From an uncultured Actinomycetes bacterium (GTDB lineage Bacteria > Actinomycetota > Thermoleophilia > RBG-16-64-13), in the NCBI GenBank assembly GCA_903873715.1, contig CAIQPS010000142.1, positions 1,693 through 65,692 of the forward strand: a stretch of DNA of 64,000 nt. Reading direction: 5' to 3'. The notes beneath the pieces are model-generated. The model did no database searches. It had not been told where the DNA came from and worked only from the letters and a program-made list of their open reading frames with translations. Position numbers and translations under genes: made by a program. Shown piece after piece: positions 37,820 to 46,391 of this stretch. Numbering within the stretch: position 1 is the stretch's first letter; every line of letters starts with the position of its first letter.

Positions 37820-38404
37820 CTACCTGTGCTCGATGATCTTGTCGACGATCCCGTACGCCAGCGACTCTTCGGCCGTCATGAAGTAATCCCGGTCGGTGTC
37901 CTTGCTCACTTTCTCGAACTCCTGACCCGTGTGCTTGGCGAGGATCTCGTCCAGCCGCTTGCGCAGGCTGAGCGCCTCGCGGGCGTGGATCTCGATGTCC
38001 GTCGCCGGACCTTCGAAGCCGCCCGACACCTGGTGGATCAGTATCTTCGAGTTCGGCAGCGCGAACCGTTTACCTTTAGCCCCGCCCGCCAGGAGCAGTG
38101 CGCCCATGGACATGGCGATGCCCACGCAGATCGTCGAGACGTCCGGCTTGATGAACTGCATGGTGTCGTAGATGGCCAGACCGGCGTACACGCTGCCGCC
38201 CGGGCTGTTGATGTACAGCGAGATGTCCTTGTCGGGATCCTCGGACTCGAGGTGCAGCAACTGCGCCACCACCAGGTTGGCCACCTGGTCGTTGACGGCG
38301 CTGCCAAGGAATATGATGCGCTCGCTGAGCAGGCGCGAATAGATATCGAACGCGCGTTCGCCTCGGCTGGTCTGTTCGACCACCATCGGTATGAGTGGGC
38401 TCAC
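37820..38404 (-). CDS. clpP: ATP-dependent Clp protease proteolytic subunit ClpP
   Basis: 194 aa with the Ser-His-Asp catalytic triad context ([11 protein letters not shown]...). There is a single clpP copy. Confidence 0.9.
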
Positions 38405-38445
38405 GGCAACCGTCCTTTCTGCGTGATGCTGTCGCGCAGCGGGAC

Positions 38446-39930
38446 CTACGCCTCCGGGGCCTCGGTCTCCGCAGCGGCTTCGGGGGCCGCTTCGGCCTCG
38501 GCCGGAGCAGCTTCCGCCTTCGCTTTCGCACGGGTGGTCTTGGGTTTGGCCGGCTTGTCGGCGGCCTTGTCGGCATCCTTGGCCGTCTCGGCTTTCGCGA
38601 GGGCGGCTTTGGCCTCGGCCACCGCGGCAGCGCCCTCGGTCAGGGCGACGGCGTTGGCGGCGATGAAGTCGGCGGCCTTGTCACGGAGGACCTGCCACAC
38701 GACGGTCTGGTAACGGCCCGACTTGCGCAGCCGTTCTTCGAACTGTTTGGGATCCACGCGGCCGGCCATGGCCATCTGCATGACGGCGCCCTTGATGTCC
38801 TCGTCGCTGGCCTCGAGGCCTTCGGCCTGCGCGACCGCGTCGAGGACCAGACCGGTCTTGACGTTGTTGGCGGCGGTCGGCTTCATGTCCTCGAGCATCT
38901 GCTCGGCGGTGGTGCCGGTGGCGGCCATGTAGGCGTTCATGTCGGCGCCCTGGGCCTGGAGAGACCGGGCGAAGTCGTTGAGCATCTCTTCAGCCTGCTC
39001 TTTGACGACGATGTCGGGCATGTCGAGGCTCGCCTTGTCGGCGACGGCCTGCACGGCCTGGGCGCGGAACTTCTGGTCGGCCTGGTAGGTCTTGCCGGCC
39101 TGCATCTTGCCCTGGATCTCAGCACGCAGCTCGTCCATGGTGGCGAACTCGCTGATCTCCGCGGCCCATTCGTCGGTGAGCGCCGGAAGGATCTTCTCTT
39201 TGATCTCCTTCACCGTGATGGTGAAATCGGCGGTCTTGTTGGCGATGTCGTCGGGGAAGCCCTCGGGAAGCGGCACGGCCACCGTCTTGGTGTCGCCCGC
39301 GTTCATCCCGGGAACGGCCTGCTCGACCTCTTCGAAGATGCGGCTCGCGCCGACCTCGAACACGAAGTCGGTGGCCTGCAGCCCGTCGACACCCATGCCT
39401 TCGACCTCAGCGCTGAAGTCGGCGGTCACGAAGTCGCCCTTCTCGGCCGCGCGGCCTTCCACCGGCTTGAGCTCGGCGAACTCGTTGCGGAGGCGATCCA
39501 TCTGGGAGTCGATCTCCTCAGCGGTCACGGCGTCGTTCTCTTTGACGACTTCCACGCCCTTGTACTGCCCCAGCTCCACTTCGGGCATGACGGTAGCGGT
39601 CGCGGAGAAGCTGAAATCCTTGCCCAACTCGGGAAGGTCGTCACCCATGTCGATCTGCGGGGTGTCCACCACGTCGAGGTTGAGTTCGAGGGCGCCCCGG
39701 GTGAACCAGGTGCCAAGGGAGTCGTCGATGGCCTCGAGAAGGATGGCCTGGTCGCCCACGCGCTGCCGCAGCATGGCGAGCGGAGCTTTGCCGGGCCGGA
39801 AGCCGGGAAGCCGGGCTTCCTTCTGCAGCTTCTTCAAACGCGACTCGAAAGCTTCCTGCAGCTCCTCGCTGGAAACCTCGACCGCAAGCTTGACCGTGTT
39901 TCCTTCGCGCTCGCTGAGGGTCGTCTTCAC
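38446..39930 (-). CDS. tig: Trigger factor (with Ala/Glu/Lys-rich C-terminal tail)
   Basis: N-terminal ribosome-binding GFRPGKAP motif, an FKBP-type PPIase domain, and a C-terminal chaperone domain. The tail is [25 protein letters not shown]. Confidence 0.9.
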
Positions 39931-39969
39931 GTTCTTCCTTTCGTTCCTTCTAGGAGGGTGTTACCCGGA

Positions 39970-40049
39970 TGCGGGTGAGAGGACTCGAACCTCCACGTCA
40001 AAGACACATGCTCCTAAGGCATGCGCGTCTGCCATTCCGCCACACCCGC
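39970..40049 (-). tRNA. tRNA-Leu (anticodon TAG), class II with long variable arm
   Basis: I folded by hand the reverse complement GCGGGTGTGGCGGAATGGCAGACGCGCATGCCTTAGGAGCATGTGTCTTTGACGTGGAGGTTCGAGTCCTCTCACCCGCA. The anticodon loop is CTTAGGA, the T-loop is GTTCGAGTC, and the variable arm is 13 nt. Coordinates +/-2. Confidence 0.75.
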
Positions 40050-40108
40050 CTGACGCTTCACAGCTCGAACCAACCCCGCGGGGACCGGCAGCTTACCGGT
40101 TCCTGAGG

Positions 40109-40183
40109 GGTGAACGATGGGACTTGAACCCACGACCGCTGGGGCCACAACCCAGTGCTCTGCCAACTGAGCTACGTTCACCA
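40109..40183 (-). tRNA. tRNA-His (anticodon GTG) with encoded G-1
   Basis: The reverse complement GGTGAACGTAGCTCAGTTGGCAGAGCACTGGGTTGTGGCCCCAGCGGTCGTGGGTTCAAGTCCCATCGTTCACC forms a cloverleaf. The anticodon loop is TTGTGGC. An extra 5' G pairs with C73. Coordinates +/-2. Confidence 0.75.
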
Positions 40184-40393
40184 CGACTGTCCGCCGCGCG
40201 CCCGAGTGGGCTTGCCGCAGACCGTCTCGTAAGCCCAAGTGCGTGCCGAACCCGACCCCTGTCTCACGAGCGCAGGACAGTATAGCGGATTGGGCTGGGG
40301 TGCAAAGGAAAAGGCCCGCCCGATCGACCCGGGTGGGAGCTGTGTCCACGAGACCGGGCGCGGACTCAGGGGGCTACGGGATACTTCGTGATG

Positions 40394-40888
40394 CTATTCG
40401 CGCAAGCGTTTGAGGTCGTGGCCCACACCGGGGCCTCGAGGCCACGGCCTCCAGGACAGAGCGGCGAGCACGGGCCCGAGGTGCTGAGGATCCCGCACCA
40501 GTTCGCGCCCTTGTGGCCAGTGACCGCTTTCCCAGAGAGCCCATCTCCCATCCTCCAGAAGCAGGATGTCGATGGAGTGGCTGAAGTCACGCCGCCCAGT
40601 CAGAGAGAACGAGAACCGGAAAACGCGGACACGCCTGTCTCTCGGCACCGGATACCAGTCACCGACGAGTCGCTCCACTCCGTCAGGCCCGATGCCGGTA
40701 CCGGCCGGTTCCCAGAACTTTCGCGGCACCGACTTCGCTAGATCCTCGAGCATGGCCGCGACGCTTTCGGGCGGATGCTCTATCGGCAGATCATCCGGAC
40801 TGACGCCGGACCGCTTCCAGGCAGCATTGATCCTTTTGTCCCTTGTCCGCGACAAGCACTGGCCAGCCGGCCCTCCACGCCCGCTCAC
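40394..40888 (-). CDS. Hypothetical Trp/Arg-rich protein (164 aa) in the inter-tRNA segment
   Basis: GTG start preceded by a clear GGAGG Shine-Dalgarno 5 nt upstream. An 11-bp palindrome GGTAAcTTACC lies between a putative promoter and the RBS. Local GC is noticeably lower than the window average. No recognisable domain. Confidence 0.45.
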   Translation of the reverse strand: MSGRGGPAGQCLSRTRDKRINAAWKRSGVSPDDLPIEHPPESVAAMLEDLAKSVPRKFWEPAGTGIGPDGVERLVGDWYPVPRDRRVRVFRFSFSLTGRRDFSHSIDILLLEDGRWALWESGHWPQGRELVRDPQHLGPVLAALSWRPWPRGPGVGHDLKRLRE

Positions 40889-41047
40889 CGAGGCCTCCTG
40901 TGTAGCTTGACCTTACGGTAACTTACCTTCCGGTCACATTAACAACACAGATGCGTCCAGCGCAAGTCCAGAGAGTGGTATTTGTCGATCGTGAGAAATC
41001 GAAGATAGTGCCGAACCCGGAAAGTGACGTGGGCCCCGAGCCCGCTA

Positions 41048-41121
<74 letters not shown>

Positions 41122-41159
41122 TCGGCCCACGATGCCGTGGAGGAATGCTCACCGAAAGG

Positions 41160-41232
41160 AGCGGGCGACGGGGTTCGAACCCGCGACATTCAGCTTGGAA
41201 GGCTGACGCTCTACCAACTGAGCTACACCCGC
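41160..41232 (-). tRNA. tRNA-Gly (anticodon TCC)
   Basis: The reverse complement GCGGGTGTAGCTCAGTTGGTAGAGCGTCAGCCTTCCAAGCTGAATGTCGCGGGTTCGAACCCCGTCGCCCGCT forms a cloverleaf. The anticodon loop is CTTCCAA. The discriminator is U, as in bacterial tRNA-Gly. Coordinates +/-2. Confidence 0.75.
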
Positions 41233-41260
41233 CCGGCGATGAGCCTTGCCGAGACGATAG

Positions 41261-41334
41261 TCGGGACGGGCGGATTCGAACCGCCGGCCCCCTGCTCCCA
41301 AAGCAGGTGCGCTACCAGGCTGCGCCACGTCCCG
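41261..41334 (-). tRNA. tRNA-Pro (anticodon TGG)
   Basis: The reverse complement CGGGACGTGGCGCAGCCTGGTAGCGCACCTGCTTTGGGAGCAGGGGGCCGGCGGTTCGAATCCGCCCGTCCCGA forms a cloverleaf. The anticodon loop is TTTGGGA. Coordinates +/-2. Confidence 0.75.
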
Positions 41335-41442
41335 TTCGCCCGCATGTCCCTGGCCTCGGCCGCGTGAGTATATCGTATCGGCTACACTGAGAACCGTGGC
41401 GGATAGCACTGGTTCGATAGTCGGATAGTCGGAGGAGTACAC

Positions 41443-42378
41443 GTGAAGATCCTTGTCACCGGAGGGGCCGGCTTCATCGCTTCGCACGTGAGCGACAGCT
41501 TCCTGGCACTCGGGCATGAGGTGGCCATAGTCGACAACTTCGCGAGTGGCAAGCGCGAGAATCTCCCAGCGGGTGCGACGTTCTATGAGGCGGATATCCG
41601 CGACGAGACCCTCCGCGACGTCTTCCGCACCGAGAAGCCGGAAGTGGTGGTCCACCACGCCGCCCACATCGAGGTGGCCCGGTCGGTGCGCGAGCCCGCC
41701 TACGACGCGAGCATCAACATCCTCGGCTCGCTCAACCTCATGGAATGTTGCCGCGAGTACGGCGTCAGGAAGATCATCTACGCCGGTACCGGCGGGGCGC
41801 TGGTGGGTGAGCCCATCTACATCCCCGTGGACGAGGCCCACCCCATCGACCCCCTAGCGCCGTACGGTGTGAGCAAGCACACCGTCGAGCACTACCTGTT
41901 CACCTATAAGGCCAACCACGGCATCGAGTACACGGTGCTGCGCTACCCCAACGTCTACGGCCCGCGGCAGGACCCGCACGGCGAGGCCGGCGTGGTCGCC
42001 ATCTTCTCGCTGCTCTTGCTGGCAGGCAAGACGCCGACCATTTTCGGCGACGGCAGCAAGACTCGCGACTACTGTTACGTCGGCGACATCGCCGCGGCCA
42101 ACGTCCTCGCCCTTAACAGCCCGGTCAGCGGCGTCTACAATCTGGGGAGAGGCATCGAGGTGAGTGACCTCGAGGTGTTCGAGGCGGTTCGCAAGGCCGT
42201 CGGGTCGGACATCCAGCCGAACTACGCACCGGTCCGCCCGGGAGAGGTCGAGCACATCGCGCTCGACTCGTCCAAAGCTCAGAACGAACTGGGTTGGGCC
42301 TGGAAGGTCGATTTCACCGAAGGCGTGAGCAAGGCCGTGGACTTCTATCGCGAACAGATCAAGAGGGAGAAGCAATGA
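41443..42378 (+). CDS. NAD-dependent epimerase/dehydratase (UDP-glucose 4-epimerase GalE-like SDR)
   Basis: GTG start. Rossmann GxxGxxG (VTGGAGFIASH), a catalytic YxxxK (YGVSKH), and a typical extended-SDR length of 311 aa. Confidence 0.85.
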   Translation: MKILVTGGAGFIASHVSDSFLALGHEVAIVDNFASGKRENLPAGATFYEADIRDETLRDVFRTEKPEVVVHHAAHIEVARSVREPAYDASINILGSLNLMECCREYGVRKIIYAGTGGALVGEPIYIPVDEAHPIDPLAPYGVSKHTVEHYLFTYKANHGIEYTVLRYPNVYGPRQDPHGEAGVVAIFSLLLLAGKTPTIFGDGSKTRDYCYVGDIAAANVLALNSPVSGVYNLGRGIEVSDLEVFEAVRKAVGSDIQPNYAPVRPGEVEHIALDSSKAQNELGWAWKVDFTEGVSKAVDFYREQIKREKQ

Positions 42379-43097
42379 GCAAGAGAGACCGCCGGGACAA
42401 CGACGGCCGCGACCGCGACCGGCGGGACGACCGTCGCGACCGGGACCGCGACCGCGATCGTGACCGCGACTGGGACGACGACGGGCAGCAGCGCCGCTCC
42501 GGCGACGGCGACGTCCAGGAGAGCGACTCCCTGGCGGCCCTCAAGGCCATCCTCGCCAAGGTGGCGGCCCAACTCAAGCCGCTCAATCTGACGTCCGACG
42601 AATCCATCCGCCTGGTGGAGCAGTTGTACGGCAGCGTCCTCGACGTGGACTCGGCCATGGCCGGCGAAGCGGACGACACCCGCAAGTCTTGGACCCTCGC
42701 CTACCTCCAGAACACCACCATCCGCCGCGACGGCGACAAGATCGCAGTGGACTTCCCCACCGCTGAAGAGCTCCGGGCCGCCCAGGCCCCGCAGGCGGCC
42801 CAAGCCCCCTCGACGGACCAGGGCGCCGCTGCCGCCGGTGCAGAGCACGCTTCCGGCCCTGCCCCATCGCAAGCTCCGGCCCGTCCTGCCCCCGCCGCCC
42901 AGGCTGCTCCGGCTGCCGCTCCCGTGCCGGCCGAAGCTTTCGCCGCCGCCCCCGCTGGGGCGACCCCTGCCGCCGAGTCGGCGGCCGAACCTGCCGCTCC
43001 GCGGGCGCCCCGCCCGCCCAGGCCCCGTCAGCCTCGCAAAGAGCCGGCCCAGGAAGCTCCGGCCGCAGCCCCTGCGCCGGAGGCCCCGGAAGCCTGA
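42375..43097 (+). CDS. Protein with N-terminal poly(Arg-Asp) repeat tract, a small central globular region, and a Pro/Ala-rich C-terminus. Unknown function
   Basis: The ATG at 42375 overlaps the epimerase stop (ATGA). The N-terminus is MSKRDRRDNDGRDRDRRDDRRDRDRDRDRDRDWDDDGQQ. The central part is LAALKAILAKVAAQLKPLNLTSDESIRLVEQLYGSVLDVDS.... The C-terminal 110 aa are APQAAQAPS...PAPEAPEA low complexity. A strong intrinsic terminator follows. Confidence 0.55.
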   Translation: MSKRDRRDNDGRDRDRRDDRRDRDRDRDRDRDWDDDGQQRRSGDGDVQESDSLAALKAILAKVAAQLKPLNLTSDESIRLVEQLYGSVLDVDSAMAGEADDTRKSWTLAYLQNTTIRRDGDKIAVDFPTAEELRAAQAPQAAQAPSTDQGAAAAGAEHASGPAPSQAPARPAPAAQAAPAAAPVPAEAFAAAPAGATPAAESAAEPAAPRAPRPPRPRQPRKEPAQEAPAAAPAPEAPEA

Positions 43098-43121
43098 CGC
43101 ACCTCACATCACCGTGAAGAC

Positions 43122-43157
43122 ACACCGGCCGCCCCTAGGGGCGGCCGGTGTCGTTTT
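43122..43157. terminator. Rho-independent terminator (possibly bidirectional) between the convergent RD-repeat gene and the PfkB kinase gene
   Basis: A perfect 14-bp GC-rich stem ACACCGGCCGCCCC-TA-GGGGCGGCCGGTGT is followed by CGTTTTG on the plus strand. The reverse strand has TCTTCAC after the stem. Confidence 0.6.
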
Positions 43158-43219
43158 GATGGAAAGTCCGGCGGAGTGTCCGCGCGGCGGCGGTGCAGCA
43201 CCGCCAGGCCTCGGCGAGG

Positions 43220-44155
43220 CTAGACCTCGTCGAAGTGCGTCATGCGCTTGAAGAGCCGGAAGCGCTCGTCCACCTCGCGCTGCTCCAGCCGCAGCAGACG
43301 GTCGATACTGAAGTCCTCTACGGCGAAGGACGCCAGCGTGCTCCCGTAGATGATGGCTCGCGCCAGCGACGAGTCGTGGGTGTTCCCGCAGGCGGCCAGG
43401 TAGCCAACGAATCCGCCGGCGAAGGTGTCCCCAGCGCCCGTCGGGTCGAAGACTTCCTCGAGCGGCAACGCGGGCGCCGTGAAGAACTCCCCGTCCCGCG
43501 ACGTGGTCGTCAGGACCCCGTGTTCCCCGCGCTTGATCACGACCGTCGCCGGGCCCATGGCCCGCAGAGTCCGCGCCGCTTTCACGAGGTTCGATTCCCG
43601 GGACAACTCGCGGGCCTCGGAGTCGTTGATGATGAGGATGTCGATCCGCTCGAGCACCTTGGCCAGGTCGTCCGGGGTGTTCTCGATCCAAAGGTTCATC
43701 GTGTCGGCCGCGACCAGTTTCGGTGATTCGACCTGGTCGAGCACGTCGAGTTGCAGCTTCGGGTGGATGTTGCCCAGGAAGACGAAGGGCGACGTGCGCC
43801 ACTCCTCCGATATCACCGGCTGGAAGTCCTCGAAGACGTTCAGCTTGGTGTAGATGGTCTCGCGCTGGTTGAGGTCGAACCCGTAGACGCCCTTCCAGCG
43901 GAACGTCTCGCCCGGCATCACTTGAAGGCCTGAGGTGTCGATGGACCGCCCGCCGAACACCTCGGCGCCCCGTTCGGCGAAGTCCTCGCCGACGACCGCC
44001 ACCAGCCGGACGTCCGTGAAGAAGGACGCGGCCAGCGAGAAGTACGTGGCCGAGCCGCCGACCACCCTGTTCGCCTCACCGAACGGGTTCTTGATGGAAT
44101 CGAAAGCTACCGAACCGACCGCGAGGATCGGGCTCTTGCCGTGTGCGTCGACCAT
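43220..44155 (-). CDS. PfkB-family carbohydrate/nucleoside kinase (ribokinase fold)
   Basis: 311 aa with a ribokinase-like fold and the C-terminal DPTGAGDTFAGGF anion-hole/catalytic motif. It lies adjacent to MTA phosphorylase. Confidence 0.8.
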   Translation of the reverse strand: MVDAHGKSPILAVGSVAFDSIKNPFGEANRVVGGSATYFSLAASFFTDVRLVAVVGEDFAERGAEVFGGRSIDTSGLQVMPGETFRWKGVYGFDLNQRETIYTKLNVFEDFQPVISEEWRTSPFVFLGNIHPKLQLDVLDQVESPKLVAADTMNLWIENTPDDLAKVLERIDILIINDSEARELSRESNLVKAARTLRAMGPATVVIKRGEHGVLTTTSRDGEFFTAPALPLEEVFDPTGAGDTFAGGFVGYLAACGNTHDSSLARAIIYGSTLASFAVEDFSIDRLLRLEQREVDERFRLFKRMTHFDEV

Positions 44156-44159
44156 GTCT

Positions 44160-45023
<864 letters not shown>

Positions 45024-45191
45024 GCCTCTCCTTTACAGACGTTGCCCTCTGCGACCCGCCGCCGTGGGACGGCCGGGCGGCGCCAGTGAGACAGCGTACC
45101 ACGGCCCGCCGCGGCGACCGGGCGGCCCAGCCCGCAACGTCCGGTCCCAGTGTCGACGCGGAGACTCGGTCGCGGCGCTCGACGCGGGGCC

Positions 45192-45560
45192 TCAGTCCCG
45201 GCCGCCGCCTCCGAGCGCGGCCACGTAGGCCATCTGTAATTGCGAAAGAGCGGCGCGGTGCGCGGCCATCTCGTCAGGCGAACGCTTGCCTTCGAGCACG
45301 CCCACCAAAGCCCGGAACGCGTCGATCGCCATACTCGCCTGCGCCAGGTCCTTGCGGGCCTCCGTGTCCGGGGTCAGGCCCATCCTCTCGATGGCCAGCG
45401 ACGAAAGCGAGTGGAGCATGAGCATCACGTGGTCGGCGACCGTCAGGTTGCGGATCTCTTCCTCGAACCGCCGCATGGTCTCCTGGTCCGGCATCCCTTC
45501 CGGCGCGACCTCCGCCGCGGTATCGACCGCGTCGCCGTCGATGCGTTCGTCTTCAGACAT
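45192..45560 (-). CDS. DUF1844-like small acidic protein
   Basis: The 122-aa reading frame starts at MSEDERIDGD... with a strong RBS GGGAGGG 4 nt upstream. The track ORF 45192..46007 is an in-frame read-through of the intergenic region. The DUF1844 assignment is from memory of that family's typical sequence. Confidence 0.6.
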   Translation of the reverse strand: MSEDERIDGDAVDTAAEVAPEGMPDQETMRRFEEEIRNLTVADHVMLMLHSLSSLAIERMGLTPDTEARKDLAQASMAIDAFRALVGVLEGKRSPDEMAAHRAALSQLQMAYVAALGGGGRD

Positions 45561-45737
45561 GTGCCCTCCCTTCTCCATCAGCGCCCTTCCTGGGACTCCG
45601 GGAATGAGGGAACAGGATACATCCTCCCCGCATAACGCCACAATCGCGTGGCGGACGACACTTCTGACTCCGCCAGTCGACCCTGTTAGAATGTGAAGCG
45701 CCTTGGAGGATGTGGAGCCCAAAGGAGCACACAAGGC

Positions 45738-46391
45738 TTGAGCCTTAGCCCGCAGGTCCGCGACGCGGACACCCATCTGATCGAAAGAGCCCGTTCCGGC
45801 GATACGGAAGCCGTGACGGAACTCTACCGGCGGCACGAGCGCAGGGCCTACAACCTCGCGCTCCGCACGCTCGGCAACCCCTGGGATGCGGCCGATGTCG
45901 CGCAGGAGGCCTTCATCAAGGCCTTCCGCAACCTGGACTCCTTCAAAGGTGACGCCCGCTTCTCCACCTGGCTCCATCGCATCGTGGTCAATGCGGCTTA
46001 CGACCATCTACGCAGGCATCGCCCCGAGCCGATGGACGGCGAGATCCTCGAAGAGGTCTCCGGGCCAGGCGGCACCGGCGCCGTGGTGGGCTCTGGCAGG
46101 GAGGGCATAGACCCGGCCATAGACGGACTCTCCGACCCCTTGCGGGATGCGCTCATGAGCCTGAGCGAAGGCTTCCGCTTCGCGGTGGTGCTGTGCGACC
46201 TGCTCGGCTTCCCGTACGACGAAGCCGCCGAGATCCTCGGGGTGCAGGAGGGGACCATCAAGTCCCGGATCTTCCGGGCTCGAGAGGCGCTGGCCGAGGC
46301 GCTCGTCAAAGCAGGCTACGAGGTCCCGGGCGTGCGGAACCCGGGTACGGCCGGGGGCGTCACACGGCCGGGTACACCAGGGGAACGTTGA
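45738..46391 (+). CDS. ECF-type RNA polymerase sigma-70 factor (SigE-like)
   Basis: Region 2 (LIERARSGDTEAVTELYRRHERRAYNLALRTLGNPWDAADVAQEAFIKAF) and region 4 (LSEGFRFAVVLCDLLGFPYDEAAEILGVQEGTIKSRIFRAREAL). The proposed TTG start at about 45738 has AAAGGAG 10 nt upstream. The track start at 45693 is the alternative. Confidence 0.8.
   Translation: MSLSPQVRDADTHLIERARSGDTEAVTELYRRHERRAYNLALRTLGNPWDAADVAQEAFIKAFRNLDSFKGDARFSTWLHRIVVNAAYDHLRRHRPEPMDGEILEEVSGPGGTGAVVGSGREGIDPAIDGLSDPLRDALMSLSEGFRFAVVLCDLLGFPYDEAAEILGVQEGTIKSRIFRAREALAEALVKAGYEVPGVRNPGTAGGVTRPGTPGER

Follow-up and report, generated by a model that had tools for sequence, protein, structure and literature searches.

We analysed a locus in a 64,000-nucleotide stretch of contig CAIQPS010000142.1 (assembly GCA_903873715.1), which derives from an uncultured Actinomycetes bacterium and has a G+C content of 67%; this whole stretch is referred to as the window. 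The locus comprises a gene for a GalE-type NAD-dependent sugar epimerase, followed by a gene for a 240-residue protein with an Arg/Asp-rich N-terminus (hereafter, the RD protein), a hairpin, and a convergently oriented pfkB gene (Table 1). An original prediction made from the sequence had described an open reading frame (ORF) with an RD-rich N-terminus and a Pro/Ala/Gln-rich tail, an ATGA overlap with the epimerase gene, and a hairpin, and we found each of these in place. In the ATGA at 42375–42378, the stop codon of the epimerase gene (TGA, 42376–42378) overlaps the start codon of the RD gene (ATG, 42375–42377). The same 240-residue ORF was called by gene callers in three public assemblies of this organism. 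Related loci and proteins are designated below by L and P numbers, respectively.

Family distribution and protein architecture

A search with the central 107 residues of the RD protein returned 68 homologous protein clusters (E values from 1e-12 to 1e-46), all from metagenomes or metagenome-assembled genomes (MAGs) and none with a Pfam domain. When one genome per GTDB species was scanned, a homologue turned up in 36 species. These are without exception uncultured Actinomycetota, which their depositors labelled as Actinomycetota, Actinomycetes, Thermoleophilia or Gaiellales, and they include 'Actinobacteria bacterium RBG_16_64_13'. The carriers are described as uncultured soil and sediment actinobacteria, and many of their MAGs come from large environmental metagenome surveys, judged by the titles of the records. 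When 1.84 billion representative proteins were searched with a full HMMER profile, 42 clusters were recovered, without a tail of distant relatives; apart from one spurious repeat protein (P0104), these are all members of the family. Seeding another profile with the most divergent members gave 117 clusters, all of them close and all annotated as 'hypothetical protein'. The profile searches, including that of the 1.84 billion representatives, revealed neither a bridge to a named family nor a homologue from a cultured organism.

In the main subfamily, the aligned core (residues 38–130 of the window protein) is 59–82% identical to the window protein and contains 28 invariant columns, and the most divergent relatives detected by tblastn still show 45–58% identity. 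The original prediction had singled out approximately residues 70–160 for a homologue search, and this central region indeed proved to be the conserved part, with homologues in more than 100 clusters. The G+C content at the three codon positions is 66/43/92% in the RD-protein core, compared with 64/41/87% in the epimerase gene and 63/42/91% in pfkB. The RD ORF is a real gene, present in single copy and inherited vertically, and it represents a narrow orphan family of uncultured Actinomycetota.

As a side observation, the exact 240-residue sequence of the window is absent from a collection of 15 billion proteins, and a variant with the substitution P198A (L039 and L040) was likewise not returned by the first homologue search. 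The adjacent epimerase is present in this collection, with 100% identity on five contigs of up to 69.6 kb.

All family members have in common an acidic core of 85–90 residues. An AlphaFold2 (AF2) model of the full-length protein based on the family alignment gave a per-residue confidence (pLDDT) of approximately 85–94 across residues 51–130, and a model of the core alone reached a pLDDT of 87.4 and a predicted TM-score of 0.75. The modelled elements are three helices (residues 51–67, 74–94 and 100–112) followed by a β-hairpin (115–126), so the region that had been described as small and alpha-helical is better described as an α+β core of about 85–90 residues. Both tails were modelled without secondary structure at a pLDDT of approximately 50 (52–57 for the N-terminal tract), and more than 60% of the 240 residues are predicted to be disordered. 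The isoelectric point (pI) is 4.48 for the core and 4.9 for the whole protein. By eye, with a signal-peptide, Tat or membrane role under consideration, no hydrophobic segment follows the charged N-terminus, and helix 1 appears amphipathic with Lys residues.

Database comparisons did not place this core in a described family. Pfam gave no match for the RD protein, even when 33 core sequences were scanned at E values up to 10, and NCBIfam returned only low-complexity matches of 10–14 bits. PADLOC gave none for the RD protein, the best PHROGs match had an E value of 0.04, and the core profile matched no PDB sequence at E values up to 10. Foldseek comparisons of the full-length and core-only models with the PDB gave best E values of 0.3–0.9 and a TMq of at most 0.42 over at least 60 columns, and those with viral structures (BFVD) gave a best E value of 0.2 and a TMq of at most 0.50 over at least 60 columns, none of them significant. 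As every invariant residue sits in the core, and some members have only very short tails, we infer that the core is the functional module. It adds a confidently modelled small domain without a detectable relative, confined to a poorly known lineage of uncultured actinobacteria.

The N-terminal tract is conserved in a different manner. In the window protein, residues 1–40 (MSKRDRRDNDGRDRDRRDDRRDRDRDRDRDRDWDDDGQQR) contain 15 Arg, 1 Lys and 16 Asp, which makes them 80% charged with a net charge of 0, and include a 12-residue stretch of pure RD alternation that is the longest seen in the family. Members with an intact N-terminus all start with M-[S/T/A]-[K/R]-[K/R]-[D/E]-R-R-D, followed by a mixed-charge tract. 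Across the 36 species the tract has 20–43 residues, of which 60–80% are charged, and in most of them R+K equals D+E plus 1 independently of length. Among 130 members, for which a slightly longer definition of the tract was used, its length ranges from 23 to 50 residues, positive and negative residue counts are correlated (r = 0.91), and the net charge lies between -2 and 0 in 117. In total, these tracts contain 1159 Arg versus 124 Lys, and 950 Asp versus 453 Glu. A few divergent members (P0295 and P0296) have Lys/Glu-rich tracts, in which K/E is used instead, and many members have a tract of only 20–27 residues. Since composition, charge balance and preference for Arg hold across the 36 species and the 130 members, it is these properties, and not the sequence, that are conserved in the tract.

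The pure RD alternation itself is not general. Only eight of the 130 members have runs of RD/DR alternation of at least 7 residues, and each of these belongs to the divergent MARRGGGERRD/VARRERRD subfamily (e.g. P0264, P0231 and P0092); similar runs occur in L032 and L042. At the DNA level, the degenerate motif (CGNGAY)4 matches four overlapping times here and nowhere else in the window, versus 0.01 matches expected from shuffled sequences. Compared with its nearest species-level relatives, including L007, the window carries a 24-nt insertion of four GACCGN units (RDRDRDRD), and the (RD)6 run is a recent in-frame 24-nt expansion of the tract found across the family. We also noticed that at L041:3437–3555 and L042:3430–3552 the public gene calls begin at an internal ATG and lose the R/D/G-rich N-terminus (e.g. 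VAPRERRGPSQDRDRDRDNYRGDRDRGDRGDRDRGDRSRGG in L042); the mixed-charge tract of this subfamily is therefore under-represented in protein databases.

The C-terminal tail of 110 residues contains 45 Ala, 24 Pro, 10 Glu and 8 Gln. Tail lengths in the relatives span 0 to about 150 residues, and the sequences cannot be aligned with one another, but read in the annotated frame the tails are always rich in A/P/E/T/Q and usually have an acidic stretch at the end. Patches similar to the Pro-Arg patch of the window protein (PRGSRPRQAPP, ARPSRPPRP, PRAPRPPRP and PRAPRPPARP) occur in L003, L006, L036 and L038. This tail is dispensable and fast-evolving. The G+C content at third codon positions (GC3) is 71.8% in the tail versus 92% in the core of the window gene, and the means over 25 members are 73.5% versus 84.2%. 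We read this difference as weak codon selection in a fast-evolving segment; it also means that, of all parts of the gene, the tail is the one whose translated length is least secure. In the tails of the window gene and of L003–L038, the codons GCT and CCT are over-used compared with neighbouring genes. Separately, the tail translations of L007 and L028 look frameshifted (e.g. ...RSRAGAGSRCRSSRCPCCGARR... and PRPRRPRLRRPSRCPQQNRPPPNRRPRR...), and the epimerase genes are split in several MAGs of the same MFD series (L004, L005, L007, L008 and L013); both are likely to result from assembly indels.

Linkage to the epimerase gene and predicted expression signals

The upstream gene product matches the Pfam Epimerase family across the whole domain (E value 8e-59), and its best solved relatives are short UDP-glucose 4-epimerases (E values from 1e-76 to 1e-87), among them 4zrm (1.7e-87) and 2p5u (8e-82). 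The motifs of extended short-chain dehydrogenases/reductases (SDR) can be read as GGAGFIAS (GxxGxxG) and Y-GVS-K (YxxxK). The score against the galE model TIGR01179 is 201 bits, below the equivalog cutoff of 262.3, and with this cutoff missed the gene is best described as GalE-type, without an assigned substrate.

In all 36 species the RD gene is immediately preceded by an orthologue of this epimerase (52–91% identity), so the pairing noted in the original prediction is conserved. Other neighbours vary across the same species, pfkB being found in 27, tig in 27 and clpX in 22. In the divergent loci L041–L044 the pairing is kept with epimerases of 64–74% identity, and the junctions consist of a 3-nt gap, a 1-nt overlap, or a 4- or 8-nt overlap. 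Nearly all related loci without a frameshifted assembly have an RTGA stop/start junction. The Shine-Dalgarno sequence GGGAG of the RD gene lies 6 nt 5' of the start, and in relatives GGA or GGAG is kept 6–10 nt upstream of the start. This layout, in which the stop and start codons overlap and the Shine-Dalgarno sequence sits inside the upstream gene, both conserved in orthologues, is the hallmark of translational coupling, and on this basis we predict that the RD gene is translationally coupled to the epimerase gene. The first codons of the family (RTG AGC AAG AGA GAC) are A/G-rich and conserved in the DNA. They include AGA, which is rare in the ORFs of the window (26 of 1330 Arg codons, 2%), and their conservation at the DNA level fits selection for an unstructured initiation region.

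Two promoter-like elements were found. In most related loci TACACT or TACAAT, usually inside ..TTTGTGCAYTACACTGG.., lies 33–100 nt 5' of the epimerase start, and GGCTACAATGG or CTCTACAATAG stands directly 5' of the RD gene in two relatives that have no epimerase (see below). The TACACT upstream of the epimerase gene in the window is the probable operon promoter. The second element lies within the epimerase coding sequence (CDS) and is the only σ70-like match between 41200 and 43400 (one found, 0.1 expected). Its motif occurs at the same position of the CDS in 21 of 34 full-length epimerase orthologues, with a diverged spacer. Codon choice at this site is unusual: over 33 orthologues Leu224 is encoded by CTT in 74% of the genes, versus 0–17% at 16 other conserved Leu columns, and Asn233 by AAT in 79%, versus 9–41% at six other conserved Asn columns, figures that are subject to phylogenetic non-independence, which the other columns of the same alignment control in part. 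These codon outliers indicate that selection acts on the DNA itself. They are most simply explained by the putative internal promoter transcribing the RD gene independently, with a 5' untranslated region of approximately 227 nt, and its conservation at synonymous sites suggests that the RD gene is probably also transcribed alone. A promoter within the epimerase CDS that can be seen as codon-choice outliers would illustrate cleanly how coding and regulatory constraints can overlap.

Downstream of the RD gene, the hairpin at 43122–43151 is a 30-nt perfect palindrome with 14-nt arms, located 25 nt past the stop codon and folding as 13 pairs with a 4-nt loop; the segment 43095–43165 folds with a dG of -42.1 kcal/mol (z -6.95). 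The original prediction had called it a 14-bp perfect hairpin terminator. The palindrome and its 14-nt arms are there; the T-run that follows has only four T/U, and a terminator pattern scan gave one site versus 0.7 expected. A comparably strong hairpin with a T-rich tail was present in 6 of 33 related loci scored, and we rejected the terminator as a conserved feature of the family.

With regard to the wider neighbourhood, an Rfam scan of 38000–46000 detected tRNAs only. The tRNA-Leu/His/Arg/Gly/Pro cluster is split by approximately 870 bp (40182–41047) between tRNA-His (40107–40181) and tRNA-Arg (41048–41121), and this interruption holds an orphan 164-residue ORF on the minus strand (40394–40888) without a Pfam match. 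In L041 and L044–L046 the His–Arg spacing is approximately 35–130 nt, and L042 carries a different insert there, about 1.45 kb long, so that this gap looks like an insertion hot spot. A conserved motif, GAGAGTATAGCGTATCG, adjoins tRNA-Pro in many loci and reads GAGTATATCGTATCG in the window (41355–41380, minus-strand sense). Read as the reverse complement, the motif includes TATACT (TATATACT in the window), which is probably the -10 element of a divergent promoter of the tRNA cluster. In the divergent sublineage, a stand-alone gene for a 77-residue AsnC_trans_reg protein, consisting of the ligand-binding domain only, precedes the epimerase gene or the RD gene.

Table 1. Coordinates of the features at the RD-protein locus and in related loci.
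Feature	Position	Strand	Description
Promoter-like -10 hexamer TACACT upstream of the epimerase gene	41383..41388	+	Predicted; motif in relatives
GalE-type NAD-dependent sugar epimerase	41443..42378	+	311 aa, GTG start; from Pfam, PDB relatives and motifs
Putative internal σ70-like promoter TTAACA-17 nt-TACAAT	42113..42141	+	Predicted; in the epimerase CDS, 234 nt upstream of the RD start
Shine-Dalgarno sequence GGGAG of the RD gene	42365..42369	+	Within the 3' end of the epimerase gene; read from sequence
RD-protein gene	42375..43097	+	240 aa; ATG at 42375, stop at 43095-43097; overlaps the epimerase stop (ATGA)
N-terminal Arg/Asp mixed-charge disordered tract	42375..42494	+	Residues 1-40; from composition and AF2 pLDDT of 52-57
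Imperfect hexanucleotide repeat (CGNGAY)6	42435..42470	+	Encodes RDRDRDRDRDRD; Tandem Repeats Finder (TRF) period 6, 6 copies, 80% matches
Acidic folded core	42495..42764	+	Residues 41-130; from alignments and AF2 model; motifs LVEQLY and AGE.DD.RK invariant
Ala/Pro/Glu/Gln-rich disordered tail	42765..43094	+	Residues 131-240; from composition and low pLDDT
Pro-Arg patch PRAPRPPRPRQP	42999..43034	+	Residues 209-220; recurs in some long-tailed relatives
Intrinsic-terminator-like hairpin, then CGTTTTG	43122..43157	+	Between the RD gene and the convergent pfkB gene
AsnC_trans_reg gene, 77 aa	L041:2127-2360, L042:2112-2345, L044:2282-2515, L046:3023-3256		Absent from the window locus

Possible roles of the RD protein

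The account that we favour, and put forward tentatively, is that the RD protein is an epimerase-linked protein whose core binds a partner and whose tails act electrostatically. The gene would be expressed from the conserved promoter upstream of the GalE-type epimerase, by way of the RTGA stop/start overlap, and probably also from the second promoter embedded in the epimerase CDS. The core may serve as a protein–protein interaction module, either a protein-binding or an oligomerisation domain, and its most likely partner would be the co-expressed UDP-hexose 4-epimerase or the sugar-nucleotide/envelope pathway that the epimerase feeds. We rank the epimerase or its pathway first because adjacency is invariant within the main lineage, and we regard this choice of partner as doubtful nonetheless, in view of the relatives that lack an epimerase and of the internal promoter. 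The charge-balanced, Arg-rich tail could provide weak, multivalent, salt-sensitive contacts or keep the acidic core soluble; as the net charge is negative, it would probably not bind nucleic acid in the way a classical basic tail does. The length of the N-terminal tract drifts through short in-frame duplications, with charge balance and Arg preference maintained.

Several points speak against this account. At the same locus, P0287 (L045:2791–3501) and P0293 (L046:3256–3501) have intact core motifs and neither an epimerase gene nor a remnant of one. In both, the RD gene lies between the tRNA-Leu/His/Arg/Gly/Pro cluster and an MTAP-like gene, and has its own TACAAT -10 element and an AGGAG ribosome-binding site. 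Adjacency is therefore not required, and a strict dependence of the RD gene on the epimerase was rejected. The conserved internal promoter would likewise imply expression that is uncoupled from the epimerase, unlike what is expected of strict 1:1 co-assembly. Taken together, the epimerase-less relatives and the internal promoter suggest that the RD gene is a partly autonomous unit. The locus had been called a discrete two-gene unit, a description that agrees with the conserved overlap and adjacency and fails for the two relatives without an epimerase and for the σ70-like promoter inside the epimerase gene. Overlaps of four nucleotides occur frequently in compact operons, and by themselves they do not imply an interaction. 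Finally, the core may bind something unconnected to sugar metabolism.

A first alternative is that the RD protein is an autonomous hub or condensate former, in which the tract drives self-association or association with RNA or ribosomes, valence is raised through oligomerisation of the folded core, and the epimerase is merely an operon neighbour. Across the family, the tract has the composition of an arginine-rich mixed-charge domain (R-MCD), being about 80% charged and near-neutral with Arg far exceeding Lys, and Arg rather than Lys matters for the cohesion of such domains (10.1101/771592). In addition, the gene stands alone in L045 and L046, probably with its own promoter, and its surroundings are of a housekeeping nature, with tRNA genes and tig-clpP-clpX-lon. 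However, in the study cited above only RD40 or longer repeats condensed, pure RD20 and RD30 remaining soluble (10.1101/771592), whereas the window protein has only about 16 Arg and 16 Asp and many members only 20–27 residues in this tract. The protein is acidic, its core (pI 4.5) even more so than the whole (pI 4.9), and the Pfam and profile scans gave no RNA-binding domain. We therefore consider this alternative unlikely. Because pure RD20 and RD30 are soluble, a single tail of 20–40 residues on a monomer should not condense alone; it could add weak multivalent contacts if the core oligomerises.

A related and broader proposal, that the RD family is a prokaryotic counterpart of the arginine-rich MCD proteins, with an Arg/Asp tail used for multivalent assembly (condensates, or hubs assembled on RNA, on ribosomes or on an enzyme complex), seems to us rather improbable. 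If it were true, the targets of selection would be charge balance and Arg content, and not sequence, in a small housekeeping protein with a previously undescribed fold. More generally, if the tract is functional, the family offers a natural series (20–50 residues, balanced charge, Arg-dominated) for asking what selection preserves in a polyampholyte disordered region, a question so far studied almost only in eukaryotic condensate proteins. Interest is lowered by the fact that Arg/Asp low complexity is compositionally cheap at 67% G+C (CGN and GAC codons), and the practical weight of the family is modest, as no phenotype, pathway or application is attached to it.

We think it improbable that the RD protein is a general stress protectant or solubiliser (a hydrophilin or 'entropic bristle') whose tails act non-specifically, for example under desiccation or osmotic stress in soil. 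The large disordered fraction, the tails that keep their composition with unconstrained length and sequence, and the environmental origin of many carrier MAGs are all compatible with such a role, but a conserved folded core with 28 invariant positions, including the charged loop AGE.DD.RK, implies a specific interaction, and many members have almost no C-terminal tail and an N-terminal tract of only 20 residues.

The original prediction had also raised the possibility that the GACCGC repeat at about 42400–42470 is a contingency locus, that is, a hypermutable repeat producing protein variants from strain to strain. Tract length does vary across species, and RD runs are expanded in the window as well as in P0264, P0231, L032 and L042. 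Yet gain or loss of a 6-nt unit always preserves the reading frame, so that the gene can never be turned off in this way. Slippage is, moreover, suppressed by the imperfection of the repeat (80% matches; CGC/CGG/CGT as well as GAC/GAT codons are mixed). The assemblies of L039 and L040, from other samples, are 99.97–99.99% identical to the window over 3.9–6.8 kb and have a tract of equal length, with one single-nucleotide polymorphism elsewhere (P198A), these being two assembly consensus sequences and not reads; a gene call on a third assembly contig of the same strain is also 240 residues long (length only). In these consensus sequences we thus saw neither a perfect frame-shifting repeat nor a length polymorphism in close strains, the marks of a phase-variable locus, and the length differs only between species. 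Hypermutability is accordingly a very remote prospect, and because the unit is in frame and the repeat imperfect, the pattern is best read as ordinary repeat drift in a disordered region.

Weakest of all is the idea that the RD ORF is, in whole or in part, a chance low-complexity open frame in GC-rich DNA, which draws on the atypical codon-position G+C of the tail (its +1 frame has a GC3 of 92%) and on long spurious ORFs overlapping the region on both strands, but can hardly be correct, given that the core and the N-terminal tract have a normal coding signature and protein-level conservation in more than 100 clusters, that the low GC3 of the tail is family-wide and the tails of relatives, translated in the annotated frame, stay rich in A/P/E and finish with acidic residues, and that the homologues keep both the R/D-rich N-terminus and the adjacency, whose joint loss, together with absent expression, the original prediction had regarded as the sign of an artefact. 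A frame artefact is refuted for the whole gene, and at most the translated length of the tail is questionable.

Comparison with known systems

The recurrent, weak Foldseek match of the core was to winged-helix domains of the ArsR/SmtB type, with which it has in common the order of elements, helix-helix-helix-β-hairpin. The two did not superpose significantly (TM-scores of 0.17–0.27, root-mean-square deviations of 11–15 Å, E values of at least 0.5), and we rejected this assignment. Unlike these domains, the RD core is acidic (pI 4.5) and has no sequence similarity to them, and it is not a member.

The upstream gene resembles those of GalE/UDP-glucose 4-epimerase operons in encoding a short (311 residues) GalE-type SDR with 4zrm and 2p5u as relatives, whereas the window locus has no nearby galT or galK. 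To our knowledge, no GalE needs a small accessory protein.

SspB, PopZ and McdB are bacterial scaffold or adaptor proteins with functional disordered regions. Bacteroides Rho (PMC13269538) is likewise a bacterial protein with a functional disordered region. The RD protein is similar to these in being small and cytoplasmic and in combining a folded module with charged or Pro/Ala linkers that are conserved in composition and variable in sequence. It differs from them in having no sequence or fold relation and no conserved terminal peptide of the SspB type, and in that the C-terminal tail is absent in many members.

The closest likeness is to the eukaryotic R-MCDs, such as those of U1-70K, NELF-E and SPA-5 (10.1101/771592). 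As in these domains, the RD tract is disordered, consists almost entirely of Arg and Asp/Glu, is near-neutral and well mixed, prefers Arg over Lys, and gains length by repeat expansion. In contrast, it is bacterial and, with about 16 R/D pairs here and 20–50 residues in relatives, remains below the lengths at which RD polymers condense (RD40) or target speckles (RD30 or longer; 10.1101/771592), and it is attached to an orphan acidic α+β core instead of an RNA-recognition motif (RRM). The likeness is compositional and not homologous. The analogy with eukaryotic RNA-binding and splicing factors that had been drawn for the RD repeats therefore extends to composition and stops there, as the protein has no RNA-binding domain, an acidic pI of 4.9 and a tract shorter than self-condensing RD. 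The RD protein lies outside every described family, and the nearest concept for it is an arginine-enriched mixed-charge domain, short and fused to an orphan core.

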